The notes: generated from the sequence alone by a model not told the origin. DNA of 64,000 bases from Chloroflexota bacterium (GCA_965208775.1 OZ242360.1:2589404-2653403); one strand, 5' to 3'; counted from the first letter of the stretch, positions 12,427 to 61,790 are shown. Made by a program: numbers and translations.

Positions 12427-13628
12427 GGCAGACATAGAGTTGCGCTTGCAGGTGGTGAATCGTTCGATTCGAGCCTGTCAGCGCTGACCAATTCAAGCCA
12501 CCTCAACTGCATCAGTGGGCAGTCGATTCCAATGCGTCGTTCCAGTCCCGTCGTTTCCATTGGCGTTTCAAGGAGGCACGCAAGCAGACGTCACGCTTCC
12601 GTATGTTTCTTCGTCTCCCTCTTGGACGACCTGTAGCCGACCGGCATTTCAGTGAAGACTTAGGTACGGTTTTCGCCGTCATTGCCCAACTTGCGGCGCT
12701 GACTGCTTACCGCAGTACGCATGGTGCGAGCATCGGCGTAGGCCTGAAGGCCCCGGTCCCTGTTGATCATCGGGCGTCAGGCCGGTTCTGACGAAGTCCG
12801 GGGGCCTGCTCGACCTGCCCAGGGTCGTGATCACGCCGTTACCGGAGTCCGTCAACGCCCGGGCGCTCTCAACCACCTCCTGGAACACGGTGTCGAAATC
12901 GAGGCTCTCATTTACGCACAGGCCGGCCTCGCTAAGCCGCGGCAGCCGGTCTCTGAGAGCCTGACTCTCCAGATCTCGAAGGTCCTCTCGGTCTAACTAT
13001 AGGCCTCGATTGGGCGGCGAAAGGTCCGGTAATCCAGCTGATGTGAAACGCCAATTGTGGCTACCGATTGGGTGTTTCTAGAGCAATTATGCCGGCTTTT
13101 ACTGAAACTCACACTGATCTTATGCAAACGGGTCGCTATTCTCACGCCCATCTTATATACGACTTCTAGACTAAAGCGTCACTGACCCGCCGAGGGGAGG
13201 CAGCCGCTTGGCTTTCGACTTCGATGCGTCCGAGTTTGTGGACGCCGAGCGGTTCCCAAAAGTCGAGCGTGGTGCCGGCGTGTCACTAACCGGGACGTCC
13301 CCAACGGGAGTGCGGCGTGGCCACGAGGGTCCGGGAATGGCGTGAGTGGCATGAGAGCAACCGCCGGCATTTGCACTTGTCATCGGTGTTGCAGTCGTGG
13401 TCATCCGGCCATTCATCGTCTAACTCTTCCGGGCAAGCCGTTTCCCAGGGCTGATTGGCGCGCAACTCACCTGGCCCTGGTCACGGAGGGCGGGGCAGCG
13501 TCTCCCTGGTGCCTCTTCATCACTTAGCCAGCTGGCCGCCCCGCCCTTTTCAGAATGGAGCGCCATGCGGGAGCGAGACGTCGTTGTCCTGATCGCGGCT
13601 GTCCTGATAGTCCTGGTCCTGTTCTTCG
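12427..13628. repeat. Copy A of a ~1.2 kb imperfect direct repeat (~90% identity with 60558-61790)
   Basis: Alignment by eye: ...gttgcgcttgcaggtggtgaatcgttcgattcgagcctgtcagcgctgaccaattcaagccacc... through ...ggccgccccgcccttttcagaatggagcgccatgcgggagcgagacgtcgttgtcctgatcgcgg. Contains an AT-richer stretch (13000-13200) plus the promoter/5'UTR and first ~20 codons of the downstream lipoprotein gene. Confidence 0.85.
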
Positions 13629-15709
13629 TAGGTTGCGTGGATTCCTCCGAGCCTGCGTCACCTGAGCAAGGCGCCGTTCAGAAGTCGGTTCTCAGACCCG
13701 GTGCCATAACGCCGGCACCGAACCCCGATCATTTCACGCAGGTAGCGGTCGGCGAAGATCACTTTTGCGCCTTGCAACGGTACGGGAAGGTCATCTGCTG
13801 GGGCGAAAATGCTGACGGGCAACTTAACGTTCCCAGCGGTGCCAGGTTCAGCCAAATCACGGCCGGATACCGCTTTTCCTGCGGGATTCAGACGGACGGC
13901 CGAATCGCCTGTTGGGGCTCGAACGCGCATAACAAAACTGATGCGCCGGAAGGGACGTTCACGGCCATAGACGCCGGCTGGGACCACGCTTGCGCGCTTG
14001 ATGGCGACGCCGCAGTGTGCTGGGGTTGGGAAGTCGACGGACGCACGACATCCCCCGATGTCACCTTCACTGCAATCGAGTCCGGCGCCGAGCACAGTTG
14101 CGGCTTGACCCCAGACGGAGATTTGCGCTGCTGGGGGAAGAATGACAACGGGCGGGCCGATTCCCGCAGCGGCCCTTTTATCGCGCTGGCGGTCGGCATC
14201 GCGCACACGTGCGTTTTGCAAAGCGACGGCAGAGTCTCATGCCAGGGTGACAATGCGTTCGGCCAGTCCGATCCTCCCGACACGAAGTTCGCGCAAATCA
14301 CCGCCGGTTCGGAACACTCCTGCGGGATTTTGTCTAACGGCGCTCTTAAGTGCTGGGGAGGTTATCCAGACAGATACAGCAAGATCGAGAACCGCCAGTT
14401 GGATGCGCCGACCGGTATTTTCTCGTCGATAGATGCCGGATGGAGGAACACGTGTGTGGTGGCAGCTCAGGGCCACGCCGAGTGCTGGGAATACTCGTAC
14501 CGGACGATCCCGTTCCCGCCTTACGATCGCCTGAATTTCGAGGACGTGCTTCCGGGCCATAAGTCCCATCAACCGACTGAGGTCTTCCCCTGGCCGGCGG
14601 GCGGGCTGGCGGTGGCCGAAAGGGCTGGCACTATCGTTGCGTACGCCGCCGGCGGGGAGCCCATCCCCATCCTCGACTTGACGGATCGAACTGACTCCGA
14701 CGGCAGTGAGAACGGCTTGCTCAGCGCTGCGGTCGATCCGGACTTCAGCGAGTTTCCATTCCTCTATGTTTTCTACACGACGCCGGTTGAGAGCAGCGAG
14801 TACAAGACATCGACACGGCTTGCGCGCTTCCCGGTAGTCGACGGCGTTGCCGTGCGTGAAGAAGAACTAACTATCCTCGACCTACCTCAAATTAGGCCCC
14901 ACAACTACCACTATGGCGGAGCGATCAGGTTCGGACCGGACGGGATGCTGTACCTGGGACTAGGCGACGGCCACTGCTTTCTGTGCCCGCAAAGTCTGGA
15001 AAGTCTGCACGGAAAGATCATTCGCATCGATGTGCGCGGAGCATCGGCCGAGCAGCCGTATAGCGTGCCGGACGACAACCCGTTCGTCGGAGTGTCTAAC
15101 GCGCGGCCAGAGATTTGGGCGTACGGTTTGCGGAACCCGTGGCGCATGGCGTTCGATTCCCAAGACGGCAGGCTTTGGGTTGCCGACGTCGGCATGCATG
15201 CAGAAGAAGAAGTAACGATTGCGGCGGCGGGCGCAAACCTGGGATGGCCGCTATTCGAAGGCTTCGACTGCTTCACCGCCGATGACATCGTCATAAAGCA
15301 TGAGTACGAGATCGTTACGGAGTATGAGTGCAGCGAATTCGAAGACCTCACGTCGCCGGTTGCCAGCTATGGGCGCTTGCAGGGATGCGCCGTGGTCGGC
15401 GGGGTTGTATATCGGGGCGCCAAGATTCCCTGGCTGGACGGCGTTTATCTCTTTTCCGACTTCTGCAGCGGGCGGATTTGGGCGCTCGACCACAGCGTCG
15501 AGTCGGGCTGGCGAATGGTAGAGGTCGCGGATTTGCCCTTGCCTGTCAGTTCCTTCGGAACCGATGAGGTCGGCAACGTTTATGTGCTCACGTTTGCCGG
15601 CCCGATCCTCCGCCTGGTCGAGGCTGAGTCAGGATACGTGAATCCTCCTGCAAACACCCTATCGTCGCGGACTTTCACACCGCCTGCCGACCGAAATAGC
15701 GTCCCCTAG
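13565..15709 (+). CDS. Lipoprotein with a 7-blade RCC1-like propeller plus a C-terminal sorbosone/glucose-dehydrogenase-like (SGL) beta-propeller
   Basis: Signal peptide with lipobox LFFVGC. Seven repeats of the form ...HxCxL..dG.v.CWG.N..GQ (RCC1/BLIP-II-like). C-terminal GLRNPWRMAFD..DGRLWVADVG is typical of the PQQ/soluble-glucose-dehydrogenase-like fold. Confidence 0.65.
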   Translation: MRERDVVVLIAAVLIVLVLFFVGCVDSSEPASPEQGAVQKSVLRPGAITPAPNPDHFTQVAVGEDHFCALQRYGKVICWGENADGQLNVPSGARFSQITAGYRFSCGIQTDGRIACWGSNAHNKTDAPEGTFTAIDAGWDHACALDGDAAVCWGWEVDGRTTSPDVTFTAIESGAEHSCGLTPDGDLRCWGKNDNGRADSRSGPFIALAVGIAHTCVLQSDGRVSCQGDNAFGQSDPPDTKFAQITAGSEHSCGILSNGALKCWGGYPDRYSKIENRQLDAPTGIFSSIDAGWRNTCVVAAQGHAECWEYSYRTIPFPPYDRLNFEDVLPGHKSHQPTEVFPWPAGGLAVAERAGTIVAYAAGGEPIPILDLTDRTDSDGSENGLLSAAVDPDFSEFPFLYVFYTTPVESSEYKTSTRLARFPVVDGVAVREEELTILDLPQIRPHNYHYGGAIRFGPDGMLYLGLGDGHCFLCPQSLESLHGKIIRIDVRGASAEQPYSVPDDNPFVGVSNARPEIWAYGLRNPWRMAFDSQDGRLWVADVGMHAEEEVTIAAAGANLGWPLFEGFDCFTADDIVIKHEYEIVTEYECSEFEDLTSPVASYGRLQGCAVVGGVVYRGAKIPWLDGVYLFSDFCSGRIWALDHSVESGWRMVEVADLPLPVSSFGTDEVGNVYVLTFAGPILRLVEAESGYVNPPANTLSSRTFTPPADRNSVP

Positions 15710-16111
15710 AACCCAAATCTAGTCGGCACTTTCCCTCTGACGCCCTGCGAAAGGTCTCGAACGTTGGATTTCTCCCCTAGGCGACATCTAGCAGATATCG
15801 GCGAGCGCAACGAGGGCCAGATCGACATTGACGGAAGCCTGCTCCAGACTTCGCCAACCCAATTCAAATGCAAGCAAGTTCCTTCCATACTTCTCGAAGT
15901 ACTCGAACCTCGTCTTCGCCACCCAGATGTCGTCCGATCAACTCCATGGGGTCGCCCCACAATGCTCGACTTCGCTGCAACAGCCGGCAATTCGTCCTTC
16001 TCCGTAGGTGCCCCAGTGCGCATAATGCAGCCAAGAATCCACTCAACGGGTCGTAGAGGACCCCACACGCCGCTGTTCGGGACGGCCCCGCGACTGAACC
16101 GGACAATCGCT

Positions 16112-17344
16112 TTAGAGCGTTCCCCAGTCGACCCATTTGAGGGCGTCAACGGAGAAGCCTCGATCCCACACGCGGGTCTTTAGCGGATCTAAGAACGGTA
16201 CGTTCTTGAGCGCGAGTGGCCTTGAGTCAGCCAGAGTGATTACTTGAATGGGTACACGCCGGTGCCCCCAACGTGTTGCATCAGTCCGATCCTGATAGTC
16301 GACTAGCAGCCTGCCGAGCGCCTCGTACGCGTGGGTGTCGTAGTAGGGCATAGAGTACCCGATTACGACGATACAGGAGACTTCATTATGTGCCCGATGA
16401 AGATTCTCCCAAAGGTCCAGGATTGGCGCGTTTCCAAGCAGCTTGTCTTGCGCTGGCGGGAGAATGAACGGGACCACAGTTCCGAATCTACTTTCGATGG
16501 GGAAGTGCTCGACGTGATTTGGGACACGACGGACTCGGGACAGGATGTTCTTCCCAAATATCTCTGTAGGTCCCTTCGAGAGCGGCTCCGATGGTACTGA
16601 AGGCGCTGGACCGAAGATCGGATCCTCGTTGGGTACTTGGTCACCTTGCTCTTTGTGCCATGCCATGGACTCGTCAAGGTAGAAGCGGTCGTACCAGTCG
16701 ATCGATCCGTGGAGCTTTATTAGGTCGACGTACTTCGGTCGGAATTGAGCAGGATCGTCTTTGAGCCACCACTGAGGCGTAAGGCTGTAAGGCTTGCCAA
16801 TGTCATCAAGCGCCTGCTCCAAGAGGGAGTCGTAGTTGAATGTGAGCACAACGTCATCGGGACCCAGTTCCTCGGCGAAGTCCCTGAACAATTGCGGTGT
16901 GTCCATGGGAGTTGCCTTGATGAGTATCTCTTGAATCGCCCTTCGCGCGGCGACTATCGATCGGCTGCCATGATTGAAGTACTCTTCAGAACCAATCAGC
17001 CCCAGATAGTGCTTTCGATGACTGTACGCGAGCACCCGCTCAAGGTCGATCGGCCGGCCTGGATACAGCGTGGTCCACTCGGCTATTTCCTCTTCAAGGG
17101 GACCTTCCCAACCGAAGTCGCGGAAGTAACGCCGGAGGTCCTTTCGGACCAGATCAAGAAGCTCTTCGCCTAGTGGTAAGCCAGCTGGGGCCGAGAAGCC
17201 GGCGCCCAGTACAAATAGGCGATAAATGGGCCGGTCCATACTGTGGAGGTTCCCCCGCGCGACGGGCGGCTGTGTTTCGTGGAATTCGCCCGCCAAATGG
17301 TCAGCGAAAATGTTCATTCCCATTCTCATCCATGAAATCTGCAT
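16112..17344 (-). CDS. Standalone SIR2-like (SIR2_2/PF13289-type) protein, putative NAD+-depleting defense effector; true start probably near 17239
   Basis: LFVLGAGFSAPAGLPLG..., VVLTFNYDSLLEQAL, DLIKLHGSIDW and IVVIGYSMPYYD match the defense-associated SIR2-like family signatures (GAGxS ... TxNYD ... KLHGS ... IGYS). No other domain in 410 aa. Confidence 0.6.
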   Translation of the reverse strand: MQISWMRMGMNIFADHLAGEFHETQPPVARGNLHSMDRPIYRLFVLGAGFSAPAGLPLGEELLDLVRKDLRRYFRDFGWEGPLEEEIAEWTTLYPGRPIDLERVLAYSHRKHYLGLIGSEEYFNHGSRSIVAARRAIQEILIKATPMDTPQLFRDFAEELGPDDVVLTFNYDSLLEQALDDIGKPYSLTPQWWLKDDPAQFRPKYVDLIKLHGSIDWYDRFYLDESMAWHKEQGDQVPNEDPIFGPAPSVPSEPLSKGPTEIFGKNILSRVRRVPNHVEHFPIESRFGTVVPFILPPAQDKLLGNAPILDLWENLHRAHNEVSCIVVIGYSMPYYDTHAYEALGRLLVDYQDRTDATRWGHRRVPIQVITLADSRPLALKNVPFLDPLKTRVWDRGFSVDALKWVDWGTL

Positions 17345-17855
17345 GCGCTACTGGAAATGTCTACGGTGCCGTTATCGGCGAGCTCTCGGCATGGGCGTAC
17401 TCGCCGGTTGTGTCCGCATGGGGACTCTACTTGTTTGCGAATGGCTACATGGCTGGGCCATGGAATCTGGCCTCCGCGCGGCCTTGTGCCGCTGGGGTGG
17501 CGAGCAGTGGGCATCGAAAATGCGTGCTCACTGGCGATGGGGGGTCGAACTGCTGTGGGACGGGCGACCGACTGACTGCGTCGATCAGCTTGGAGTAACT
17601 CTATCTTCCAGTCATGACTGCTGCACAAGCTGAGGCAATCGGTCTGGTAGAGCCAAATTGGAGCGACGCTGCGGCCCGCTCAACTCTGGCGAGCCGATCC
17701 CGGCCAGCTCCGTTTCCAAAGTGAGTCGAGGACCGGAGATTCGCAACTTGTCCGGGGGCCAGTTGGGAGTTGGCCGACAGGAAGTCGCTACTCATCCCCC
17801 GATTGGCGTCTATCGCCATTCCCCTCATGTCATGAACAGAAGAGCGGGTGACTAC

Positions 17856-19358
17856 CTACTGGAGGGCCGCTCCAAAGACGTGTAGTGCAACTGCCAACGA
17901 TTCGTCGATCCACTCGTTGAACTGAGTGAGAACTTGATCGTTTCTGTCTCTTTCGGTGAACGTGAACGCTGTATCGCTGCAATCGACAGCCTGCTTATCG
18001 GGCCCCACGGCAGGTTCCTCGTCCCCGTTGTACCACCAAACCTCCCCGAAACAGGTAGCAGCCATTACGCCGGATAGTGGCGCTCCAACATGGTGTAGGG
18101 AGATAACGTAAACCAGACGCAGTTTCTCAAACGAAACATTTGCTTGAACCCAGTACCGAGCTTCGGATCGGTTCGCCCAATGTCCGAGTCGTTTTGCGGT
18201 GTTGACGATTTGGAACCACCAATAGTCCTCTTCGGCGGCACCGGGTCCTGCACTGCGCACCCAGTGAGCGAGTTCCAAGCCTTGCCGCTCAAACTCCCAC
18301 GACACGTCCTCCAACTTCTGTTCGAGGAAGTCGGTCGCATGGTTGTATAGCCAAGATGCGGCGTCGTTGACCTTTCGCAATTCCTCGAACTTCTCCATCT
18401 CCCTAGCTCGATGGCGACTAGCGAGAGCTGAGGCAACCTGATCGATTTTGCTTCGGCTGGGATCAGCCACCGTTACTTCTTCCGTGGCTGCTTTGGCAGT
18501 TTCTGAGACGGCGGTCAGCAGGTCCCGACGTTGCAGTTTCGCGAACAGATTTGTCAGAGTTACGAGGTCACCCGTGTCGGCCTCTTCCAGCGCGGTGATG
18601 TATTCATCGCGGTCCTCTCGATCGACGCGCAGAGGAAAGTAATCACCCTTGATCAAGACCATTGACGCTAAGGCGCGCGCGACGCGTCCGTTGCCATCCT
18701 GAAACGGATGAATGGCTACGAAGGCGTGGTGCAGCCAAGCAGCAGCCGCCGCAGGATGGAACCGAGAATTGAGCGTCCCAAAAATGTCAACGAGCCGCGT
18801 CATCTCGACACCCGTTTGCTCGGGTGGGGCATATTCGTGAACAGTGCCATTCGGCCGAGTCGGATTATTGGGATGCAGCTTGTACTGTCCGTGCTGCAGG
18901 CGCGTACTCACTCGCCCTCCGAATTGGTCGACACCTTCGACGTAGTCTTGGTGACGAGTGATTAGCGCGTGCAACTCCTTTATGAAGCCTTCGGTCAGGT
19001 CACGTGTTCCGCCCACAAAGTCCATCACGAAGTCCAACGACTCCCTTTGATCTCGAATCAGATCAATGGTGTTGGCAGAAACCACGCCTCCAACCCGGTC
19101 GATCGCGTCAGCTGTGATGCCATGAGCGATAATCGTCTCTGTGATGCCTCTGTCCAGCTCGTACAGCCCTTCGATAATCCCGGTCTCGATCGCGATGGAC
19201 CTGTAGAGGCGTTCCGTGAATCGCGAAAGCAGGGCTTCACTAAGTTCCGACTTAACCCCGACCCAGAGATCGCGGACGTGATCCAACCTCTCAAGATCGT
19301 CTGTTACCTGATGCCTGAATTGCTCCGATGGAGGGTCAATGGGTCTCCAGCCAGACAA
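17856..19358 (-). CDS. Fic/Doc-family protein (predicted AMP/NMP-transferase), 500 aa
   Basis: Canonical Fic motif HPFQDGNGRVARAL (HxFx[DE]GNGRxxR) in the middle of the protein. Long N- and C-terminal extensions. Confidence 0.8.
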   Translation of the reverse strand: MSGWRPIDPPSEQFRHQVTDDLERLDHVRDLWVGVKSELSEALLSRFTERLYRSIAIETGIIEGLYELDRGITETIIAHGITADAIDRVGGVVSANTIDLIRDQRESLDFVMDFVGGTRDLTEGFIKELHALITRHQDYVEGVDQFGGRVSTRLQHGQYKLHPNNPTRPNGTVHEYAPPEQTGVEMTRLVDIFGTLNSRFHPAAAAAWLHHAFVAIHPFQDGNGRVARALASMVLIKGDYFPLRVDREDRDEYITALEEADTGDLVTLTNLFAKLQRRDLLTAVSETAKAATEEVTVADPSRSKIDQVASALASRHRAREMEKFEELRKVNDAASWLYNHATDFLEQKLEDVSWEFERQGLELAHWVRSAGPGAAEEDYWWFQIVNTAKRLGHWANRSEARYWVQANVSFEKLRLVYVISLHHVGAPLSGVMAATCFGEVWWYNGDEEPAVGPDKQAVDCSDTAFTFTERDRNDQVLTQFNEWIDESLAVALHVFGAALQ

Positions 19359-19669
19359 AATCCAACTCCATAAGGCTCTTGATCGTTCCCGAACATGTAC
19401 CGTTCGCTATGTTAATCCGAGAATGCCGCGCTAGGTTCAATCAGCGGCAAGTTCTCTCCCAGTTATTTCTGAAACTGGCGGTGCTAGAGATCTTCGTGCC
19501 GAGCAGATGGCACTCAACCAGGATAGAAGTCGCCGCAATCTGCTCGACCCTATGAGTTGATCGTGCTTGCGATCCTCCCCGACTCTACGTCGGGGATACT
19601 TCTTGGAACGACTCCCTGCGAGTCTGGCACTGCACGGACCCGATCTTTGGTTCCGTTGCCAACTGCTGC

Positions 19670-21268
19670 CTAGACGAAGCCTCTGTCCTTGGCCAGTATC
19701 CAGATCAATACCACCGCATCTGCGCACACTCCCGTCAAATGTCTGACCACTTCAAATCCAAGAAATCGAGGTCGATGGCTTACCAGATTGCGAGCAGCCA
19801 CAGCTGCTACTAGTGTGCGGGCGACTGCTTCATCACACTTGACGTCAGATTCGTGCGTGGCCCTGACCAGATTCAAGGCGCGGTAGTCGAGATCACCCTT
19901 CTTGTCAGAAGTCTGGCCTGTGCTCTTCAGTTTCATGAAACAGGTGTGCCACGCGGTATTTTGACCAAGGACCTCGATAAGATCGGAGTAGCTCTTTCCA
20001 TGGTGAGCTACAGGCTCGCTATGGGATGCGTCTTCGATAGGGTCCCGCCGTGCACCCACGATGCCACGTAAGAGTTGCTCTCCGGCTAGCGCCAACGGTC
20101 GGAGTCTCCGATTGTGGAATCCCGGAAATCGATCGCGTCTTTGATCGCTTGTCGTGAAGGAGTAGTGCTGTAGGCTGAACAGAACTTCCAGCAGATCGTG
20201 GTCAAGGCAGAATCCCACGATCTCCTCCGCTACGTCGCCGAGATCGTCGCGACTCGAGATAACCCGAGTTACGGGGTCGCGCCCAAGTACAACATTCAGG
20301 CTCCGTCTCGCCTCGGAGGCCGCAACCTCAACCGGGTCATGCCGTTTGAGTTCGGCGACGAGCCCCCTCCCAACATGGCGGTCGGCAGCGGCGAGGAAAC
20401 TATCCCAGTCGTAGCTGAAGGCTAGACCGGCAAGGTTCTCCGCGTCCCGAAGGTACTCATCCGCATCCTCGGCGAGTGAGATGCGCTCGTTACGACGGTA
20501 TTTGGTGATCAGTCTGATTAGCTCGCCGAGAAAACTGAACAACGCAGGCTCCTCCAAGCCGGACATCGCCAGAGCTCGGCGTGCCCGCTTGGCGCGAACC
20601 GACTTTAGTCTGCTATACGCCGCGTCTGACAGCTCCTGTCCGCTAGAAAGCCCGTTAAACGCGTCGCGATAGGAGGCCTGATCTGCGAACCGAATGAGCT
20701 CCAGCGCATCGAAGCCGATCGCCATACCGCGAAGAGACCGAATTCGCTCAGTGTCTGTGGGGATGTAATGCGAAGTGTCCAAGTGTTGCCAAAACTGCGA
20801 ATGAGTGTAGTAGTAGCGGTTTTGGCGCAACAGTTCGACTGCATGCACTTGCCACGGAGCGTAGTAGCGATCGACTGTAGGCTCCTGAACTATGTTGCCG
20901 TCCGGCATGGTTACGGAGATGCGATGCGTTCCCCAAGGCGCGAATGTTGTGCAGTCCGGTGTTACCAGAAATCGGTTATTGCCACGCTCGAGGTCGAATA
21001 CGTGAAGACCGTCTATGTCCCTTCGCTGTAAACGCTGCCACTGTCCAGGGGGGTCGAGGTCATCGGGGTGATTTACTTCAACGCCAAGGTTGCGCTCGGT
21101 AACGGCAACGGCATGGGCGGTAGGCGCATGTGTTGCAAAAGCGGGCAACAGTAGGCAGTGCCGCTCGTAGAACTCCAGTTCCCTATCAGTAAGGAATCTC
21201 ACATTGAGAGCGTCAGCGTGACACCTGAACTGCCGGGTCTCGAGGAAGCGTCTACCATGCTGGTTCAA
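19670..21268 (-). CDS. Hypothetical 532-aa protein with a C-terminal HEPN-like Rx4H motif (AARNLVSHRP)
   Basis: Coding-like ORF with no similarity I recognise in the N-terminal 450 aa. The C-terminal RN...H motif is in the position typical of HEPN RNase / Abi-type proteins. Motif-level evidence only. Confidence 0.4.
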   Translation of the reverse strand: MNQHGRRFLETRQFRCHADALNVRFLTDRELEFYERHCLLLPAFATHAPTAHAVAVTERNLGVEVNHPDDLDPPGQWQRLQRRDIDGLHVFDLERGNNRFLVTPDCTTFAPWGTHRISVTMPDGNIVQEPTVDRYYAPWQVHAVELLRQNRYYYTHSQFWQHLDTSHYIPTDTERIRSLRGMAIGFDALELIRFADQASYRDAFNGLSSGQELSDAAYSRLKSVRAKRARRALAMSGLEEPALFSFLGELIRLITKYRRNERISLAEDADEYLRDAENLAGLAFSYDWDSFLAAADRHVGRGLVAELKRHDPVEVAASEARRSLNVVLGRDPVTRVISSRDDLGDVAEEIVGFCLDHDLLEVLFSLQHYSFTTSDQRRDRFPGFHNRRLRPLALAGEQLLRGIVGARRDPIEDASHSEPVAHHGKSYSDLIEVLGQNTAWHTCFMKLKSTGQTSDKKGDLDYRALNLVRATHESDVKCDEAVARTLVAAVAARNLVSHRPRFLGFEVVRHLTGVCADAVVLIWILAKDRGFV

Positions 21269-21470
21269 AGCAAATCAGGTCCGCTCCGTTCAGTTTGACC
21301 GGAAGTGCGTACATCGATCAGCCTACCCTACTTGCCAAAGATTCTGAGGTCGCAGCACGATGGCATTGGTCTCGACGCCCATCCAGGATGTGGCCGAATC
21401 CTGGCCGGTCTTCACATGACGTGATTAGCGGCCAATTTCCTCTCCCTAGGTCTGCATCGTGCGGGTCTAC

Positions 21471-25767: not shown

Positions 25768-25816
25768 TTAGCGGCTGGACAGTTGACCCAGCCCATTTTC
25801 GACTCCGCGAACGCAG
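25768..25816 (-). promoter_or_regulatory. Putative CRISPR leader (~50 nt between the cas2 stop and the first repeat); unusually short, may extend into the cas2 3' end
   Basis: Position between the cas2 stop (25817-25819) and the leader-proximal repeat. No IHF-like or -10 motif confidently identified. Confidence 0.35.
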
Positions 25817-26104: not shown

Positions 26105-26139
26105 GTCCGCAGTCCTTCTGGATCGCCGGTTAGCACGGC

Positions 26140-27039: not shown

Positions 27040-27275
27040 TTCAAATCACCTCCTGCCACCACGGCAGTCCGAACGCCCGCCGCGCGCACTCGCAATCCCC
27101 CGGACTCCAACCCAGCTTCCCCCTGACTGCCGAGCATTCTGTGGTCTCCGGCTCACGCTGCGACGGTAATTCGAAATTATGGATCTATTCAGTTGTTAAG
27201 GTGCGACCACGCTGCCAGAGGGCAGCGTGGTTTGTTCGGAGGCTGGAAAGGGTTCGAAGCCTGCGTCGCGGCCTC

Positions 27276-28010: not shown

Positions 28011-28063
28011 GTGGAGCGGTTGGGAGTCGGGATCGGATGGACGGACCGGCTGGCTCGCCGCTG

Positions 28064-28825: not shown

Positions 28826-28829
28826 TCGC

Positions 28830-48283: not shown

Positions 48284-48514
48284 ATGACCTCCCTAGGTAA
48301 GGGGTAAAGGAGCGGTACCTATGAACGCTCTGGAGGCCGAATAGATCAAGGCGGACCGGCGTCCCGCGGGAGTGATGCCATAGCAACGACGCCGATCCGT
48401 CCGAAGGGCGGGGCACCCCCCTGGATGCGCGCAGACGTGGAAGAAGGCTGCGCAGCCACCCCGCCGGAACAGATTCTAGACTTGCGAGACCAGGACTCGA
48501 AGAGGCGGGACCTG

Positions 48515-49522: not shown

Positions 49523-49626
49523 GCACTATGTGTGAATAGGAATGAGCCGTTGCAGACGCTCGGAGCACAGCCAAGACGCCGTCAATCACTCAGTGACTCA
49601 CGGAGCGACACTGTTATAATGCAGAT

Positions 49627-51467
<1,841 letters not shown>

Positions 51468-51471
<4 letters not shown>

Positions 51472-52805: not shown

Positions 52806-53337
52806 GAGATTTCTCTTCGGGAATGAACATTGGAGATCCAACCGCGCCATAGACGAGATATGCGTTTACAGCGACTTGCTAGAAGAACTGCAAGACACGA
52901 TAGATGCTTTGGAAGTGCGCGGCAAAGATGAAGAGACTGCATTGGTCAACGCACAGGCAGTCATAAGTAGCTATGCGGTTGAAATCGCTATGAAATCCCT
53001 CTGGGCATTGGACAACTCTCCTGCAACCGTACCCCGTGGACGTCAGGGACATAACCTGCTCAGGATGTTCGACCGTCTGAAGCAAGAGACAGTGGAATCG
53101 CTTGGGCGACTTCAGCTGACCAGGACAGTCCTCGAAGAATGCCCTTCACCTTTCCCTAGTAACAGATACTCGATGGAATGCGGCAGTAGAGACATCGTGG
53201 TCTACGATGCGGGGTTCCTTAGGCAGCTTGCACAGGTGCTTAGAGAGAAGCTGGATCAAACGAGGACGCAATCACTCTCCCCCACCGCAAACGCGCCATC
53301 CTCGACGAACTCTTCAAGCCCCTCCTCCACAAGCTAA
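52762..53337 (+). CDS. Small helical protein inserted after hsdS; possible HEPN-like (RGRQGH, Rx4H) protein
   Basis: 191-aa ORF whose last ~25 codons (..APSSTNSSSPSSTS) are an off-frame reading of a duplicated hsdS 3' tail, so the real C-terminus is uncertain. The Rx4H motif alone is weak evidence. Confidence 0.35.
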   Translation: MKKENLMTSTGIPIERFLFGNEHWRSNRAIDEICVYSDLLEELQDTIDALEVRGKDEETALVNAQAVISSYAVEIAMKSLWALDNSPATVPRGRQGHNLLRMFDRLKQETVESLGRLQLTRTVLEECPSPFPSNRYSMECGSRDIVVYDAGFLRQLAQVLREKLDQTRTQSLSPTANAPSSTNSSSPSSTS

Positions 53338-53415
53338 TGACCGGCGAAATCCGCGTTGATGATCTCGACTTGCACGTGATCAAGCAACCGCTTCACCTCG
53401 ATGGAGAGATCCCTT
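53242..53415 (+). repeat. Second copy of the hsdS 3' conserved tail (gene-fragment remnant; frame-0 segment ...HRKRAILDELFKPLLHKLMTGEIRVDDLDL...)
   Basis: Direct nucleotide repeat of 52604-52690 (caccgcaaacgcgccatcctcgacgaactcttcaagcccctcctccacaagctaatgaccgg). Preceded by stops in frame and has no start codon. Confidence 0.7.
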
Positions 53416-53485
53416 GAGTGTGAAAGCCACCGCCCATTTGCCCACCTCCGCCGAAGCCAAATGCCAATGAAGATAAGGAGAACAG

Positions 53486-53947
53486 ATGATCGACCCGAAT
53501 TCTAGGGCAGCCGGCTCGACCGACGACGACAAGCAGGTCTTTACATTGCCACTTGGCGACGATGTGGATAGGCAACTCTACGCACTTGAGAAAGCACAGA
53601 AGGCTGTGTATGCGTTAGCCACAAAGCAAGGAGACCTCAAGGACCGGCTTGCTGAAGCCTTCACTGAACTCATTCGAATTGATGTATCGGCTGTTCCTGC
53701 TCACCTCCAGTCCGACTACAAGTGGATCAAGAACTCTCTGACAAGCAAGTCTGCCAAGCAACGCGCTTTTGCCCAGGGTAGATGGGTTGAAGGTGTCGAA
53801 GGTCGAATCGGCGCAACTCTGGCGTATATGCGACGGAAGAAGACGGAGGAAATAGCCGACCGCATCACCCAATTCGCGTCTCAACTAGAGGACGCAGTAA
53901 GCGCACCATCCTTGACGACCCCTTCAAGTCCCTCCTCCACAAGCTAA
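53486..53947 (+). CDS. Small hypothetical protein (153 aa) between hsdS-tail copies 2 and 3
   Basis: Coding-like, helical. The C-terminus (..APSLTTPSSPSSTS) again runs into an off-frame hsdS-tail repeat. Confidence 0.3.
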   Translation: MIDPNSRAAGSTDDDKQVFTLPLGDDVDRQLYALEKAQKAVYALATKQGDLKDRLAEAFTELIRIDVSAVPAHLQSDYKWIKNSLTSKSAKQRAFAQGRWVEGVEGRIGATLAYMRRKKTEEIADRITQFASQLEDAVSAPSLTTPSSPSSTS

Positions 53948-54048
53948 TGACCGGTGAGATACGGGCAGAAGAGCATGACCTCTCAGCAATCGGAAGACCA
54001 GCCGGCCGTAAGCTCGGTGAGATGAGACGACCACGCATATGTCAATAG
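53890..54048 (+). repeat. Third copy of the hsdS 3' conserved tail (frame-1 open segment ...KRTILDDPFKSLLHKLMTGEIRAEEHDL...), ending 10 nt into the helicase gene
   Basis: Direct repeat (aagcgcaccatccttgacgaccccttcaagtccctcctccacaagctaatgaccggtgag). No start codon. Confidence 0.7.
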
Positions 54049-56012
54049 AAAACCAGCCAACACCATGGCTCGAAGGGATCGAGGGCAGCGTTGCCCACGA
54101 GCTAATTGAGTCGGATGCACAGGTCATCCGCGTGGTAGCGGGACCTGGATCAGGGAAGACGACCTGTCTCAAGCGCCGACTCCAGCGTCTAATCCAGAAG
54201 GACGAGATCGATCCAAAGACGGTGTTCGTTGGAACGTTCACGAGGGCGATCTCAAGAGAGTTGAGAGAGGCGCTTGGTACGGAAGTTCGAATTTCGACGC
54301 TCCATTCACTAGCTTACGGACTGCTTCGAAAGTACCCGGCTGCGTGTCAGGGGATGCAATTGCGTTTTCTTCTGAGATTTGAAGAGGATGCATTGCTATA
54401 TGACGTCGAAGGGGTCGCCAAGTCGATAGGCAACATACACAAGCGCCGAGAAGCGCTTCGGATGTTACAGGCCAGTAGGTCGCAACGGGCAAAGTACGCG
54501 AATGCCAGATTTGATGGTGCCGTTAGACGTTGGTTGCAACGGCACCGAGCAATGTTAATAGGGGAGGTTGTCCATCTTTGTGTAGTCGGACTGGAGAGCG
54601 ACGACATTCCTTCCGGGTCTTTTGGTCACGTGGTGATCGACGAATATCAGGACCTCACTGCCGCAGAGCAGGAACTGGTGCGTCTCGTCTGGTCCACGAC
54701 GGGATCTCTGACAGTGTTAGGGGATAACGACCAATCGATATACGGCTTTCGATTTAACCATCCTGACGGGATTGCAGACTTCCATCTAGCTTGGCCTCAA
54801 TGCAAAGACTTGACATTCATTGATAACCGCCGTTGTGGAGAACGTATCCTCGACGTAGCTAACTTGATGATGGCCGAAGCCAGTGGCACGAAACCGCCGA
54901 TGAACTCAAAGAGTGCGCGTGTTGGCGAACTGAAGGCCGTTCAGTGGAACACTCTCGATGACGAGATTACTGGTCTGGCAAATGTCATCAACTCCTATGC
55001 AGACGAGTCGTTTCTCGTCCTCGTTCCTCGTCGCTTCATCGGCTATCGCTTGGCTGACGCAATTGGAAGTGACGCGAGAACGACGTTTTCTGAGCAGGCG
55101 TTAGAACACTCCATCGCGCAGGAGTGCTTTGCTACCGTGTCACTATTGGCCAACCCGGAAGACTTCGTAGCGGCTCGCGCCTATCTTGGATTTCATGGTA
55201 CGAGTCGAAAGCAGGCACCGGGTCGTAATGCGGAAGCCTACGCTAGTCTGCCGACAAACATTGGCGGCCACGAGATGATCCGGCAGATTGCAACTCAGAA
55301 GGTCAACATCTCTGGGACAGGACAGAGCCATATTCAGGAACGAGCGAAGAAGGCAGTTCAACTAATTGACTGCTCCTTGACACCAACAGAGACCATAGAC
55401 CTTGCGTTCAATGATTCACTGGCAAACGAAGAACAGGATGATGAAAAGCGGCGCTGGTTGGCCGAACACCTGCGAGAGCTTAGGGACGCGGCGCACGAAT
55501 TGTTGATGCGACCAGACACGCCTACCTTGTCGAAGGTCATTGAGACGATGAGGTACCAGATTGCTACTCGCGCACCTTTGCAAAGTTCCGATGACGAGGA
55601 GCCTCGCGTGAAAATCATGACACTTCATTCAGCTAAGGGACTCGAAGCCGACAACGTCGTAATTGCAGGTGTTGCCGATCAATTCATGCCGGGTACTGAA
55701 ACCGATCAAAATGTCATTGCGGAACAGAGACGACTGCTTTACGTGGCGGTTACACGTGCCAGAGACCGTCTGATCATTTCGTGGCCTCGAAGAATCAGGA
55801 CAGCCGACCTGATGAAGAATATGGGACGCCGAGGCCAGGTAACCACCACGAACGGCGAAAAATGGGGCATCACGTCACGCTGTTCCCTGCTTCCTCAAGG
55901 TCTGAGCGGCGTCATAACTGGTTCCCAGCTACTTGCCTCAGCGATTGAGGAAGCGGCGAGCCGTGGAGAAAGCCGTGCGCGCCACGCTCTCAAACATGCT
56001 GCCCCAGGTTAG
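54039..56012 (+). CDS. UvrD/PcrA/Rep-like SF1 DNA helicase, embedded between hsdS and hsdR
   Basis: Walker A VVAGPGSGKTTCL, motif II VIDEYQDLT, motif V/VI IMTLHSAKGLEADNVVIAGV ... LLYVAVTRARDRL. 657 aa with no nuclease domain recognised. Confidence 0.85.
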   Translation: MSIENQPTPWLEGIEGSVAHELIESDAQVIRVVAGPGSGKTTCLKRRLQRLIQKDEIDPKTVFVGTFTRAISRELREALGTEVRISTLHSLAYGLLRKYPAACQGMQLRFLLRFEEDALLYDVEGVAKSIGNIHKRREALRMLQASRSQRAKYANARFDGAVRRWLQRHRAMLIGEVVHLCVVGLESDDIPSGSFGHVVIDEYQDLTAAEQELVRLVWSTTGSLTVLGDNDQSIYGFRFNHPDGIADFHLAWPQCKDLTFIDNRRCGERILDVANLMMAEASGTKPPMNSKSARVGELKAVQWNTLDDEITGLANVINSYADESFLVLVPRRFIGYRLADAIGSDARTTFSEQALEHSIAQECFATVSLLANPEDFVAARAYLGFHGTSRKQAPGRNAEAYASLPTNIGGHEMIRQIATQKVNISGTGQSHIQERAKKAVQLIDCSLTPTETIDLAFNDSLANEEQDDEKRRWLAEHLRELRDAAHELLMRPDTPTLSKVIETMRYQIATRAPLQSSDDEEPRVKIMTLHSAKGLEADNVVIAGVADQFMPGTETDQNVIAEQRRLLYVAVTRARDRLIISWPRRIRTADLMKNMGRRGQVTTTNGEKWGITSRCSLLPQGLSGVITGSQLLASAIEEAASRGESRARHALKHAAPG

Positions 56013-56406
56013 ATTCCGCGTCCTTCATCACGATTCCCGCGCCCACTACGGCTTGCAGGTAGCGGATTACTGCTGCTGGGCGATCTTCAGGAAACACGAG
56101 CGGGGAGATTCGGCCCACTTCAACATAATCGGGAGCGCAGTGCGCAGCGAGTTCGACATCTTTCGGACAGGATCGACGTATTGCTACTGAATATGCCGAT
56201 TTGCAGACAAAAAACGACCTCCCCGACTACTCCGTTTCCGCGGAGAGCACCCGTGACTCTCTTGTCATCGGGGAGGGACCTTTGATCGACGATAACGCGC
56301 AAATGCAGGATGCGGCCAACAAACGCAAGACGCGGCCAACTTCCAGCCGGGCATTCAAAGAAGCCGCTGAGACTCACGCCGCCCCGCTCGAAGTGAGGAA
56401 ACGGCA

Positions 56407-56718
56407 ATGAACCCACGTATCTTCATCCCGAGGGACGCCCTTGCCACATTCTGCCGAGAAAATGGGATAGGGCGCTTGGCCGTCTTCGGCTCTGCGCTGC
56501 GCGAAGACTTCGGACCCGAAAGCGACATCGACCTGCTGGTCGAGTTTGAGCCGGACCGCGTTCCCGGGCTTTTCGGGCTGGCCGGTTTGGAGTTGCAATT
56601 GTCCGAACTGTTCGGCAGGCAGGTAGACCTTGTGACGCTCTCCGCCATTGAGCAGAGTCGGAACTATATCCGCCGAAAAGCTATTCTCGATTCCGCCGAG
56701 GAAGTCTATGCGGCGTGA
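56407..56718 (+). CDS. mntA: MntA-like minimal nucleotidyltransferase (antitoxin of a HEPN/MNT pair)
   Basis: 103 aa; GSALREDFGPESDIDLLVEF = the GS..D[ID]D nucleotidyltransferase motif. Confidence 0.75.
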   Translation: MNPRIFIPRDALATFCRENGIGRLAVFGSALREDFGPESDIDLLVEFEPDRVPGLFGLAGLELQLSELFGRQVDLVTLSAIEQSRNYIRRKAILDSAEEVYAA

Positions 56719-57073
56719 CGACGCATACCTGCTGGACATGCTCCTGTCGTCCCGGGACGCGGTCGAGTTTGCCTCCGATATCACCTACGCGGAGTTCTGG
56801 GAGAGCCGTCTTCACCGGAATGCAATCTTGAAGTCGATTGAAATAGTCGGCGAGGCCGCGTCTCGCGTAAGCGCTGGAGCTAGAGAGGCCCACAACGAAA
56901 TTCCATGGGGCGAAATTATCGGAATGCGCAATCGCATCGTGCACGCCTATTTCGAAATTGATATCGAGCTTGTTTGGAGAGTCGTAAAGGACGATCTGCC
57001 GAAGCTCATTACCCGGCTTGATAGAATAGTGCCTCCCGACCCGAGTCGTAAGCGGACCAGTGAAGATAACTGA
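56708..57073 (+). CDS. hepT: HepT-like HEPN toxin (DUF86); start taken at internal Met overlapping the mntA end by 11 nt
   Basis: C-terminal RNRIVHAY (Rx4HxY HEPN RNase motif). Its 3' end overlaps the hsdR start by 14 nt. Confidence 0.75.
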
Positions 57074-60002
57074 AGCGGACGTCGCGCAGTTTCCGATGGT
57101 CCGCCACGCGGCGGAGATCGGCTGGACCCCCATCCCGCCAGGTGCCGCCAAGCGAAAGCGCGGCGGCGAAACCGGGATGCTCTTACGTGGCGAGCTCGAA
57201 GCCAGACTGGCCGCCTTCAATCCGTGGATGTCGTCCGACGCCATACGCCAAGTCGTCGAGCGGATCGAGGCCCTGCCGCCCACCATCGAGGGCAACTGCG
57301 AGATGCTCGGCTGGCTGCGCGGCGAGCGGCAGTCGCACGACGAAACCGAGAACCTGAATCGGCGCGTCCGGCTGATCGACTTCGACTCGCCCGCCGCCAA
57401 CAGGTTTCACGTCACCTGGGAATGGCGGCTCAAGCCCCCCGCGCGCAAGGCCAACCGCGCCGACGTGATGTTCGTCGTCAACGGCGTTCCTGTCGCCATC
57501 GTCGAGCACAAGAACCCCAAGGACGCCAACGCCATCGAACGCGGCGTCAAGCAGCTCAAGCGCTACGAGATAGAGACCCCCGAGCTACTCGGCTCCCCGC
57601 AGCTGTTCAACGTGACCCACGTTCTCGACTACTGGTACGGCGCTACCTGGAACGCCAACCGGCGCTACATGGCGCGCTGGAAACGGCAACGAGAGGAAAC
57701 CTACAGGTTCGCCGTTCAGTCGTTCTTTGAGCCGACCGACTTCCTGCGCACGCTGCGCGACTGGATTCTGTTCTACGTCGAGGACGGCGAGACTCGAAAG
57801 TCGGTCTTGCGCCAGCATCAGCGCCGCGCCATCGACCGCATAGTCGAGCGCTGCTCCGAGCCTGACAGGCGGCGCGGACTCATTTGGCACACCCAGGGTT
57901 CCGGCAAGACCTTCACCCTCCTCACCGCCGCCCGCCTGATCCTGGAGCGTAAGGCGGAGTTCCAAACGCCTACGGTGGTGGTGGTCGTCGACCGTACCGA
58001 GCTCGAGGGTCAGCTTGAAGGTTGGGTCGAGAGGCTGCTCGGGGAGATGAAGCAGCAGGACATTCCGGTCTGGCGCGCCGGCTCAAGAGCCGAGCTCCGT
58101 GAGATTCTCGCGACCGACAAGCGCGGCCTGGTCATCTCGATGATCCACAAGTTCGAGGGAATCCAGAAGAACGCCAACGTCCGCGGCAACATTTTCGTCT
58201 TCATCGACGAAGCGCACCGCTCCGTCGCCAGGGACCTCGGGACCTATCTCATGGCGGCCCTGCCCAACGCTACGATCATCGGCTTTACCGGCACGCCCAT
58301 AGACAGGACGCAGCACGGACAAGGCACTTTCGTGATTTTCGGTGCCGACGACGACCGGGGCTATCTCGACAAGTACACCATCGCCGAGTCGATAGAAGAC
58401 GAGACCACCCTGCCGATCCGGCATACGATGGCATCGAGTGAGATGACTGTCCCGACCGAGAGGCTGGACAAGGAGTTCTTCGAACTGGCCACGGCCGAGG
58501 AAGTCACCGACGTCGAACAGCTCAACAGGGTCCTCGACCGGGCGGTAGACCTCCGCGCGTTTCTGACCGCCGACGACCGAATCGAGAAAGTCGCCGCGTT
58601 CGTTGCCAAGCACTTCAGGGAGAATGTACAGCCCCTGGGCTACAAGGCGTTTCTGGTCGGAGTCAACCGCGAAGCCTGCGCCAAATACAAGCAAGCCCTC
58701 GACAGGTTTCTGCCGCCCGAATGGTCAATGCCGGTCTACTCCGCAAACCCAGACGACATAGTCGACCGCCCGCTTGTCGCCGAGCTCCAGCTATCGCGTG
58801 CCCAGGAGTCGGACGTCCGGCTCTTGTTCAAGAGGGCCAACGAAAACCCGAAGATTCTGATCGTCACCGACAAGCTCCTTACAGGCTACGACGCGTCATT
58901 GCTCTACTGCATGTATTTGGACAAGCCGATGCGCGACCATGTGCTCCTGCAGGCGATAGCCAGAGTGAATCGCCCCTACGTGGACGCGAACGGCGTCCGC
59001 AAGCCCATAGGCTTGGTCATCGACTTCGTGGGCGTTCTGCGCGAGTTGAAGAAATCGCTGCGGTTCGACAGCTCCGACGTTGAAGGTGTGATCCAAGACC
59101 TCGATCTGCTGTTCAGGGACTTTGTCACGAAGATTCATGAGGTGGCGGTCGGATATCTCCACGACCTGCCGGAAATTACCGATGATGAAGCCTTGGAAAA
59201 GGTCGTCTTCGGGCGATTTCTCGACCCCGAGCAGCGCAAGGAGTTCTTCGAGAAATTCAAGCAGATCGAGGCGCTCTGGGAAATCCTCTCGCCCTCGCCC
59301 GAGTTGCGCGATTACATCGATTCGTTCCGGCAGCTTGTCGCCTTGTACGCCGCCGTGCGCGGTGCCTATGCGCCCGGAGTCAGTTTCAGTGCAGATCTGG
59401 CTAACAAGACGAGATCCATGGTGCAGGCGCGCACTGCCCAGGATGGTCCCGACTACTTCACAAAGTCCGTTACGTTCGACTTGCCCACCCTCAAAGCGCT
59501 GCGAGAAGAGCCGGGATCAGACGAGGCCAAGATATTCAATCTTGTGCGGGGTCTACGAGTAGAAATCCAACGCGACCGGGACATGGCGCCCGTGCTTCAA
59601 ACCCTTAAGGAACGCGCTGAGCGCATCCTTCAGGAATTCCAAAACCGCAACGTGGACAGCCTTGCCGCGATGAACCTGCTGGAGCAATTGGCAGACGAAA
59701 AGGAAGCCGCAGTCGAAGCCGCGAACGATAGCGGTCTGTCGTCTCGGGGATTCGGCGTTTACTGGACTCTCAGGGAAGACAGCGCTCTGGAAGCGGCAGG
59801 GATTCCCGCCGCGGAGCTGGCCGAAGAGGCGGAAACGCTATCTGCCCGCTTTCCGAACGCCGCCGTAAACGCCGACGAGGCGCGTAGACTCCGAGCCGCC
59901 CTGTATCTTCCGCTTCTCAAACTTGACAACGAGGAGCGTATCCGAATCATCGATGCGATACTCGGAATCCTGCTTGACGTGGACTCGGATGCGCATAGCT
60001 GA
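57060..60002 (+). CDS. hsdR: Type I restriction enzyme R subunit HsdR
   Basis: 980 aa. Walker [18 protein letters not shown] box [10 protein letters not shown], helicase motif [11 protein letters not shown]-terminal nuclease region present. Confidence 0.9.
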
Positions 60003-60297
60003 GGAGCGCCGCCGGGTCATTCGTGATCGCGTCGAATACTGGACTCAACGACTCAGCGTCGCCCCCAGGGTTGTTCGCGTGCAGCACATGACTCGCAAGT
60101 GGGCTTCCTGCTCAACATCTGGTGTTCTCACATTCGCGATCGATCTGGCTGAACAGGAACCCGGATTTCGAGACTTCGCCATAGTCCACGAGCTATTGCA
60201 CCTGCGCGTTCCCAACCACGGAAAGCTGTTCAAGGCGTTGATGACCGTTCATGTACCAGACTGGAGAAAGTATGAAGTGGGCAGGAACCATTTGTGA
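59923..60297 (+). CDS. DUF45/YgjP-like zinc metallopeptidase (WLM-type HExxH), short form, overlapping the hsdR 3' end
   Basis: HELLHL (HExxH) motif. This family commonly follows hsdR. Likely starts at an internal Met ~59986. Confidence 0.55.
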
Positions 60298-60557
60298 CCT
60301 GCGCTCCAAAATCTGTCCCCGGACATAAATCGGGATTTGCGGCCGGAGTCTGCTTCCCTAGCTGACTGCTGAATACCGCGACCAAGTCAGCTGCCGCGCG
60401 GAGCCAACGAGCATTCGTGAAGCCGACTCGATCTAGGTGGACGAGTAGAGACTCCTACCGGTCAATCACGCTGCTTTCTCGGATTGGAGGGCGCCAATCT
60501 GGTTTGGCCATGGGCAGGTTTCAGGCACCGTTCGACGCCGCCTTGATCCTCACTAAG

Positions 60558-61790
60558 CAGACTTAGGGTTGCGCTTGCGGGTGGTGAATCGTTCGATTCG
60601 AGCCTGTCAGCGCTGACCAATTCAAGCCACCTCAACTGCATCAGTGGGCAGTCGATTCCAATGCGTCGTTCCAGTCCCGTCGTTTCCATTGGCGTTTCAA
60701 AGAGGCACGCGAGCAGACGTCACGCTTCCGTCTGTTTCTTCGTCTCCCTCTTGGACGACCTGTAGCCGACCGGCATTTCAGTGAAGACATAGGTACGGTT
60801 TTCGCCGTCATCGCCCAACTTGCGACGCTGACTGCTTACTGCAGTACGCATGGTACGAGTACCGGAGTTCGCCTGAAGGCGCTGGTCCCTGTTGATCATC
60901 AGGCGTCAGGCCAAAGCTGACGAAGTCCGAGGGCCTGCTCGACCCGTCCAGGGTCGTGATCACGCCCTAACGGGAGTCCGTCAACGCCAGGGCGCTCTCG
61001 ACCACCTCCTGGAGCACGGTGTCGAAATCGAGGCTCTCGTTTACGCGCAGGCTGGACTCGCTAAGCCGCGTCAGCCGGTCTCCGAGAGCCTGACTCTCCA
61101 AGTCTCGAAGATCCTGTCGGTCTATCTATAGGCCTCGATCAGGCAGCAGAAGGTCCGGTAAACCAGCCGATGTGAAACGGCAATTGCGGGTCCGGATTGG
61201 GTGTTTCCAGAGCAATTATGCCGGATTCGACTGAAACTCACACTGATCTTATGCAAACGGGTCGCCATTCTCACGCCCATCTTATACACGACTTCTAGAC
61301 TAAAGCGTCACTGACCCGCCGAGGGGAGGCAGCCGCTTGGCCTTCGACTTCGATGGTTTCGACGCGTCTGGACCTTTGGATGTCGAACGGTCTTCAAGGT
61401 TGAACGCGGTGCGGCCTTGTCACTAGCCCGGGCGTCCCGAACGAGAGTGGGGCGGTGCCGGAGAGGATCGGGAGTGGCGTGAGTGGTGTCAGGCCAATCG
61501 CCGGCAGTTGCACCTGTCATCCGTGTTGCAGTCGTGGTCATCCGGCCATTCATCGTCTAACTCTTCCGGGCAAGCCGTTTCCCAGGGCTGATTGGCGCGC
61601 AACTCACCTAGCCCTGGTCACGGAGGGCGGGGTGAGCCCCCTGGCTAGCCCTCTACCCAACTTAGCCAGTTGGCCGCCCCGCCCTTTTCAGAATGGAGCG
61701 CCATGCAGGAGCGAGACGTCGTTGTCCTGATCGCGGTCGTGCTGATCGCGGCTGTCCTGATTGTCCTGGCCATGTTCTTGACGACCGTGT
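60558..61790. repeat. Copy B of the ~1.2 kb imperfect direct repeat (pairs with 12427-13628)
   Basis: See copy A. Has a 15-nt internal tandem duplication (gatcgcggtcgtgctgatcgcggctgtcctga) relative to copy A. Confidence 0.85.

Follow-up and report, generated by a model that had tools for sequence, protein, structure and literature searches.

Diverged direct repeats in a Chloroflexota defence region as probable paralogous duplicates of a decayed sensor-gene locus

A decayed sensor-gene locus within two direct repeats

The window analysed here is a 64,000-nucleotide (nt) stretch of DNA from a Chloroflexota bacterium (GCA_965208775.1, OZ242360.1:2589404-2653403), with positions counted from its first letter. 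It contains two direct repeats, copy A (12428-13626) and copy B (60557-61779), which lie on either side of 47 kb of defence and mobility genes and are 88.0% identical over 1227 aligned columns (E = 0), a result on which MAFFT, a repeat finder and self-BLAST agree. Each copy carries the remnant of a sensor/regulator gene on the minus strand and, on the plus strand and divergent from it, a ~560-nt leader followed by the start of an open reading frame (ORF). This arrangement is called the module below, and the coordinates of its parts are collected in Table 1. We argue that the two copies are probably old duplicates of a dead locus and not the ends of an island. The original prediction had placed two copies of about 90% identity in the same orientation at 12427-13628 and 60558-61790, which is essentially right, and the pairwise alignment it proposed, once run, returned the long similarity given above.

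When a 15-18-nt indel in the repetitive stretch coding for the transmembrane (TM) segment is allowed, homology between the copies reaches approximately 13628 in copy A and 61796 in copy B. Identity is unevenly distributed along the repeat, with perfect tracts of 121 nt (from 12451), 56 nt (12604), 54 nt (13159) and 87 nt (13386) alongside tracts of 54-72% identity (13203-13370 and 13469-13518). Besides this pair, the repeat finder and self-BLAST detected as long repeats in the window only the CRISPR array (21548-25500) and three 81-nt pieces of hsdS, and the repeat finder returned no inverted repeat pair of at least 60 nt. ORF and translation checks revealed no transposase-like ORF in either copy, and neither a target duplication nor terminal inverted repeats were found at the module ends.

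The repeat had initially been described as an AT-richer non-coding stretch plus the start of a gene. This description has to be revised for about half of each copy, where the minus strand encodes an internally deleted hybrid sensor kinase/regulator pseudogene running from a GAF to a Trans_reg_C domain; its translation yields the N-terminus of a sensor protein (…RLSEAGLCVNESLDFDTVFQEVVESARALTD…). A full-length relative of 805 amino acids (aa) with the domain order GAF-PAS-HisKA-HATPase-REC-Trans_reg_C is encoded in a Tepidiformaceae genome (L003). In a tblastn search of this protein against the window, its residues 18-85 matched 12963-12760 in copy A and 61080-60889 in copy B at 51-55% identity, and its residues 762-796 matched 12734-12630 and 60857-60759. 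About 675 internal codons are gone and the deletion junction is identical in the two copies (12760/12734 and 60889/60857), which makes the deletion older than the duplication. The start codon of the sensor gene has also been lost from both copies, and copy B has an additional in-frame stop. The common deletion junction and the common loss of the start codon are derived characters of the kind expected from dispersed paralogous duplication.

Past the stop codon of the pseudogene, the 42 codons at the left end of the repeat weakly resemble the Ig-like repeats of surface proteins (library-wide E values of 2e-6 to 1e-5, against repeat proteins). A 75-aa ORF downstream of the pseudogene likewise gives weak matches to Ig-like repeat proteins, which were taken as a hint as to which copy keeps its native flank: the match passes the left boundary of the repeat by 6-8 codons in copy B, and does not do so in copy A.

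On the plus strand, a three-way alignment with the homologous contig L008 from another Chloroflexi metagenome-assembled genome (MAG) delimits two conserved leader blocks (13075-13212 and 13376-13495). The leader of copy A contains a candidate upstream ORF (uORF) of 45-48 codons at 13208-13345, with a strong Shine-Dalgarno sequence (GAGGGGAGG) and a TTG start. Its MAFDF... start and ...GPGMA end are kept in copy A and in L008, while the version in copy B (61337-61426) is frameshifted. A terminator-like G+C hairpin with a T-run (13485-13550; 61622-61688 in copy B) is located 10 nt before a GGAG ribosome-binding site; one of its pairs varies between C-G, U-G and U-A, and 3 of 71 pairs are compensatory among the three sequences. 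The layout of uORF, hairpin and T-run is suggestive of an attenuator, a resemblance without statistical support. The leader fold has no excess stability (z-score -0.24), a promoter and terminator consensus scan gave nothing exceeding the shuffle background, and an Rfam scan of the leader returned nothing at the gathering threshold, with best E-values of 0.16 (a microRNA) and 3.4.

Fusion, divergence and distribution of the module

L008 is a 3.8-kb contig (GCA_026708165.1) in which the module recurs at 77-78% nt identity over approximately 930 nt. Its sensor gene begins with ATG, and on the other side lies a complete ORF for a 43-codon membrane peptide. The match between L008 and copy B extends to 61810, past the end of the homology between A and B, and the L008 peptide is 70% identical over 37 aa to the small membrane ORF of copy B. 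In copy A, the corresponding start belongs to a lipoprotein gene in which codons 1 to ~20 are the small ORF of the module, and everything from the lipobox onward is a body of RCC1 repeats and a glucose/sorbosone-dehydrogenase (GSDH) domain. The junction falls at ~13620-13630, on a short TGTT.T microhomology that immediately precedes the cysteine of the lipobox. The closest RCC1/GSDH homologues (71-79% aa identity; L001 and L007) carry another signal peptide, and their DNA homology is confined to 13620-15638 of the window; in two related assemblies, such homologues are found in a conserved UvrA…UvrB/tRNA-Leu/AHSA1/PIN-Phd context. From these comparisons, copy A is the derived copy, a fusion, and copy B is native-like, with a whole small ORF. 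The original assignment, in which copy A was full and copy B truncated, is thereby reversed. As its 5' end is the small ORF of the module, the lipoprotein would now use the promoter, leader and signal-anchor of the module. Protein P0001 is 100% identical to this lipoprotein. Lipoproteins that combine RCC1 repeats with a GSDH domain belong to a very large family (>2000 hits at E<=1e-10), of which a single Chloroflexota genome encodes several paralogues.

Directly left of copy A are found the 5' remnant of a truncated gene of a ~927-aa membrane protein family, whose homology to the related L009 protein stops after residue 102, and a relic of the cas3 N-terminus, which gives a 44-nt inverted match of 88.6% to the resident cas3 gene in self-BLAST. 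The relic is probably left over from a previous cas locus or from a rearrangement. On each side, copy A is bounded by an illegitimate junction. Copy B continues natively on its right side, through the small ORF, and weakly on its left side, by the 6-8 codons mentioned above. On L009 (12453-20804), three tandem paralogues of the ~927-aa membrane family lie beside two tandem sulfatase-like genes.

Sliding distances between A and B were calculated with L008 as the third sequence (outgroup), and the clustering of identical sites was assessed by runs and longest-run permutation tests. The distance between the copies is 0-3% in 13075-13225 and 13376-13495, where both differ from L008 by 13-40%, and ~10% across the pseudogene. 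It rises to 25-32% in 13225-13375 and 13466-13555, where A, B and L008 are equidistant. The clustering of A=B sites is significant (longest run 19, p=0.0004; runs test p<5e-5). Such a mosaic fits gene conversion between the paralogues, uneven constraint being a partial alternative, and it shows that the copies do not stem from a recent duplication. Recombination between the copies, raised in the original prediction as a route to loss of the whole interval, is physically plausible given the perfect tracts of 121 and 87 nt and the gene-conversion-like mosaic.

The module is not confined to this pair. A protein search with the pseudogene fragment retrieved P0122, a 67-aa protein whose gene is absent from the window and lies on the 3,239,824-bp contig that also encodes the window proteins. 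It is 82% identical to copy A and 79% identical to copy B, and ends at the point of the deletion junction. Since P0122 lies outside the window on the same contig, this genome has at least three copies of the decayed locus, and the module is more than a pair of copies tied to this interval.

Relatives of the sensor N-terminus are numerous in sponge metagenomes, where a metagenome scan by peptide alignment gave 99 of them, several per contig; none of the 99 carries the leader or the small ORF. A metagenome scan with the conserved hairpin pattern yielded zero matches, and a scan of genome contigs with the sensor N-terminus returned relatives of 44-52% identity from other phyla and families, without the module. 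In the scans made, leader and small ORF were seen outside this genome in L008 only. The N-terminal motif RLSEASLRINESLDFDTVLQEVV marks a strongly expanded family on the sponge metagenome contigs L011-L090 (MKWU, LXNI, LXNJ, Ga0209...); the accession prefixes MKWU, LXNI and LXNJ denote sponge metagenomes (PMC5649159, PMC5099237).

The defence region between and around the repeats

The DNA between the repeats is accessory, as had been proposed, and the gene content listed for it is borne out by Pfam. It comprises SIR2, Fic, type I-E cas genes, PIN/PhdYeFM, Mrr, a ParB-methylase, a 1340-aa helix-turn-helix (HTH) protein, type I restriction-modification (R-M) genes with extra hsdS pieces, a UvrD-like helicase, MNT/HepT, YgjP and serine and tyrosine recombinases, together with a CRISPR array of 65 units. 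That the repeats bracket this content as an island does not follow: McrBC, GmrSD-like and DUF2971 genes sit to the left of copy A, and there is no step in GC content at the repeats. GC per 2-kb window ranges from 0.536 to 0.677 with several internal steps and is ~0.60 on either side of each repeat, so that the comparison of inside and outside gives no compositional step at the repeat ends. The clustering of several unrelated systems by which defence islands are recognized is found in the region as a whole, where McrBC, GmrSD-like, SIR2, Fic, type I-E CRISPR-Cas, PIN/Phd and Mrr genes occur together with the ParB-methyltransferase, type I R-M and MNT/HepT genes.

The tyrosine and large serine recombinase genes form a pair within the interval. 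The serine recombinase (46676-48283) has two more copies of at least 90% identity on the same chromosome, three in all, and one in the OXG11 MAG. There, the pair is kept at 84-91% nt identity (L091 7753-11561; L092) and has variable defence cargo on one side and a truncated ComM-like gene on the other. Homology to L091 and L092 stops at 46723, 47 nt before the stop codon of the serine recombinase, whose C-terminal tail varies with the insertion site (a ComM-like target in L091). A split target gene was not recognized beside the serine recombinase end, where 45756-46722 (about 920 nt) contains no readable ORF. Judged from this conservation, the pair appears to be the conserved end of a separate multi-copy integrative element that would end at ~46723, inside the interval.

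Integrase-driven islands flanked by attachment sites (att) resemble the interval in their accessory and defence cargo, in the presence of recombinases within it and in the direct repeats on both sides. Their repeats, however, are exact and tens of bp long, whereas those found here are 1.2 kb and 88% identical. The original view that the repeats are unlike an att duplication stands, as they are both too long and, being mosaic at 88% identity, too diverged. The other marks of such islands, namely an adjacent integrase, insertion at a tRNA/tmRNA gene or at the 3' end of a conserved gene, and confined accessory content, were likewise absent. ARAGORN detected no tRNA or tmRNA gene in the 64 kb, no recombinase adjoins either repeat, and defence cargo continues outside. 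Copy B is 11 kb away from the serine and tyrosine recombinases and copy A 33 kb, and the recombinases would belong to another element. Composite transposons and regions flanked by insertion sequences have a transposase in the repeats and terminal inverted repeats, neither of which was found here.

The order of flanking genes differs among the nearest genomes, and on both flanks the genes concerned, the sulfatase-like gene on the right and the fragments on the left, are members of multi-paralog families. Window proteins that were checked are singletons or near-singletons at 90% identity. For the right-flank sulfatase-like gene, the collection holds no protein of >=90% identity, unlike for other proteins of the same contig; the gene may have been annotated as a pseudogene or may be interrupted past the end of the window. 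The gene after copy B was also considered as a paralogue of the RCC1/GSDH gene, a candidate relationship that was rejected as BLASTP gave no similarity between the two.

Three further genes of the region show irregularities. The 421-aa homologue of the GmrSD-like gene is matched in two overlapping pieces in different frames, with a 141-codon ORF left, and this gene is probably a frameshifted pseudogene. In the cas3 ORF (32232-34778, minus strand), the first ~40 Cas3 HD residues are encoded upstream of the first ATG/GTG/TTG (34779-34900) and the Pfam Cas3_HD match begins at profile position 45, which would indicate either a non-canonical start or a damaged 5' end. Finally, three direct 81-nt repeats of 74-80% identity in hsdS (52623-53979, plus strand) mark extra partial frames after the main hsdS gene. 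As these repeats are direct and not inverted, they do not constitute a classical invertible shufflon.

Table 1. Features of the repeats, the interval between them and the flanks (positions in the window).
Feature	Position	Strand	Equivalent in copy B	Remarks
DUF2971 gene, left of copy A	760..1563
McrC/McrB-type restriction genes, outside the repeats	4147..7750	-		Pfam
GmrSD-like gene, left of copy A	9338..10244	+		Homologue L010 7370-8635
Truncated 5' fragment, ~927-aa membrane protein family, directly left of copy A	11912..12121	+		77% identity to residues 33-102 of L009 18021-20804
cas3 N-terminus relic, ~24 codons	12261..12332	+		In-frame stop; inverted relative to the resident cas3 5' end (34776-34847)
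Repeat copy A, derived copy	12428..13628			Both ends are junctions with unrelated sequence
Left ~200 nt of repeat, 42 codons (METTGLERR...)	12429..12560	-	ORF 60462-60689	Includes the 121-nt tract identical in A and B
Pseudogene C-terminal remnant, end of Trans_reg_C domain, copy A	12630..12734	-	60759-60857
Pseudogene N-terminal remnant, GAF-domain start, copy A	12760..12996	-	60889-61125	In-frame stop in copy B
Divergent intergenic region and leader, copy A	13000..13564	+	61130-61702
Chimeric lipoprotein gene	13565..15709	+		RCC1 repeats and GSDH domain (Pfam)
Interior, mosaic of defence/mobility genes	15710..60556
Tyrosine and large serine recombinase pair	46676..49530	-		Pfam
Repeat copy B, native-like copy	60557..61828			Drawn to include the complete small ORF
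Complete small membrane ORF, 41 codons (MQERDVVVLIAVVLIAAVLIVLAMFLTTVWPVSAATSCPPC), copy B	61703..61828	+
Right-flank membrane protein, sulfatase-like, multi-paralog	62016..63998	+		Runs off the window

Origin of the repeats

We hypothesize that the repeats are old dispersed paralogous duplicates of a dead sensor-gene locus inside a larger patchwork defence region, and not the ends of an island, an explanation that we consider probable. The ancestral locus would have consisted of a GAF-PAS-HisKA-HATPase-REC-Trans_reg_C gene divergent from a leader and a membrane ORF of 41-43 codons. In a first step, the sensor gene would have lost its ~675 internal codons, after which the remnant locus would have been copied to new sites by segmental duplication or illegitimate recombination. 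Copy A would have been cut at both ends, on the left onto the 927-aa membrane gene and cas3 fragments and on the right by in-frame fusion to the RCC1/GSDH body, and A and B would later have exchanged or retained sequence in patches. The 47 kb between the copies would be part of a larger rearrangement-prone defence region shaped by several independent events, including the element with the tyrosine and serine recombinases. Were a RecA-type crossover to occur within the identical tracts of 121 or 87 nt, 48 kb would be lost, the lipoprotein body included. The original prediction had offered two routes, insertion by homologous recombination or a segmental duplication later filled by insertions; the second comes near the account given here, whereas the first corresponds to a disfavoured rival discussed below.

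Dispersed duplications under gene conversion are well known from duplicated tuf genes, rrn operons and Rhs elements. Similar to these, copies A and B are kilobase-scale direct repeats that lie tens of kb apart, with mosaic identity and the potential for RecA-dependent deletion. They differ in that the duplicated unit is a dead locus with its leader and not a conserved functional gene, and in that no rearrangement product is seen.

It should be noted that several points weigh against an origin by dispersed duplication. The proposed order, with duplication first and defence genes later, is a reconstruction, and no close relative with or without the interval was found. The tracts of 25-32% distance exceed the ~10% of the presumably neutral pseudogene and are not explained by simple duplication and drift; to account for them, one has to invoke a more distant paralogue as the source of conversion, rapid evolution or noise in the alignment. 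P0122 is known from its coding fragment and not from its DNA or flanks. The native left flank proposed for copy B has the 6-8 codons of weak similarity as its sole basis, and the apparently intact sensor gene of L008 is seen over 85 codons before the contig ends.

An unlikely alternative is Campbell-type integration, in which a circular element with a diverged module recombined with a resident copy, so that the 47 kb represent one insert. Integration of circular DNA in this way would likewise leave the insert flanked by long direct repeats of the segment common to both partners. The repeats are indeed direct and bound accessory DNA, their left boundary is common to both copies, and the long identical tracts could be footprints of heteroduplex or crossover. 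However, the interior is a compositional and functional patchwork in which Pfam scans turned up no replication or transfer genes, and defence genes go on outside copy A. Further, copy A has no native continuation on either side, its ends being illegitimate junctions with gene fragments, and the module is present at least three times, with extra copies elsewhere. A divergence of ~12% would also strongly depress homologous integration.

It is quite unlikely that the module serves as a lineage-specific expression/secretion cassette of promoter, uORF-and-terminator leader and signal anchor that has been copied repeatedly and is grafted onto new bodies, such as the RCC1/GSDH lipoprotein, with the copies, partly identical by gene conversion, acting as arms for swapping the 48-kb block. 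Capture of 5' ends or signal peptides and expression-site-like arrangements are known from the surface lipoproteins of Mycoplasma and Borrelia, and the lipoprotein of copy A resembles these in having a conserved upstream region and signal-peptide start joined to a different mature body. Unlike in those systems, a single static fusion is found here, with no silent-cassette array and no recombination machinery tied to the fusion. If the idea were true, the symbiont population could use the cassette copies to lose, regain or swap the 48-kb defence block as one unit.

Mobilization of the module itself, either as a portable promoter/leader/signal-anchor cassette or as the terminal repeat of a larger element, is very unlikely. 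At least three copies have a common derived deletion, the fusion of one copy to a foreign gene body falls precisely at the signal peptide, and the TM-coding stretch is internally repetitive with a slippage-type indel of 15-18 nt, all of which could be accommodated by mobility. The serine recombinase also occurs in three copies, a parallel that may be coincidence. Against this stand the lack of a transposase, of terminal inverted repeats and of a target duplication at the module ends, the single fusion seen, and the presence of leader and small ORF in one other genome only. The recombinase pair does not lie beside copy A, and its conserved homology excludes the module. That the repeat is an assembly artefact, by chimeric join or duplication of a collapsed region, is extremely improbable, for although the source is a metagenome-derived 3.24-Mb contig whose arrangement is unconfirmed by a second genome, the copies differ at ~12% of positions plus indels and so are not one sequence placed twice, each has distinct and coherent flanks, and copy A contains an intact reading frame of 714 codons.

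Enrichment in defence genes has been reported for sponge symbionts (PMC5649159, PMC5099237). Similar to their defence islands, the region described here is dense in R-M, CRISPR-Cas, toxin-antitoxin, Mrr/Mcr and SIR2 genes, and relatives of its genes come from sponge metagenomes (MKWU, LXNI, LXNJ). Compared with those islands, its cargo is not unusual and the repeats are incidental. Repeats that bracket the region would have meant a new insertion and excision route for a 47-kb defence island; what the evidence favours is an ordinary process, the dispersed duplication of a dead locus whose old copies here lie in a plastic and defence-rich part of a sponge-type Chloroflexota chromosome. The recombinase element with its variable defence cargo is the more likely mobility vehicle of the region. 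The value of the repeat pair lies in a clean example of a gene fusion that would give a lipoprotein a foreign promoter, leader and signal peptide, and in a pair of 1.2-kb paralogues that, 48 kb apart, may still be exchanging sequence, which makes loss of the defence block testable at the population level.

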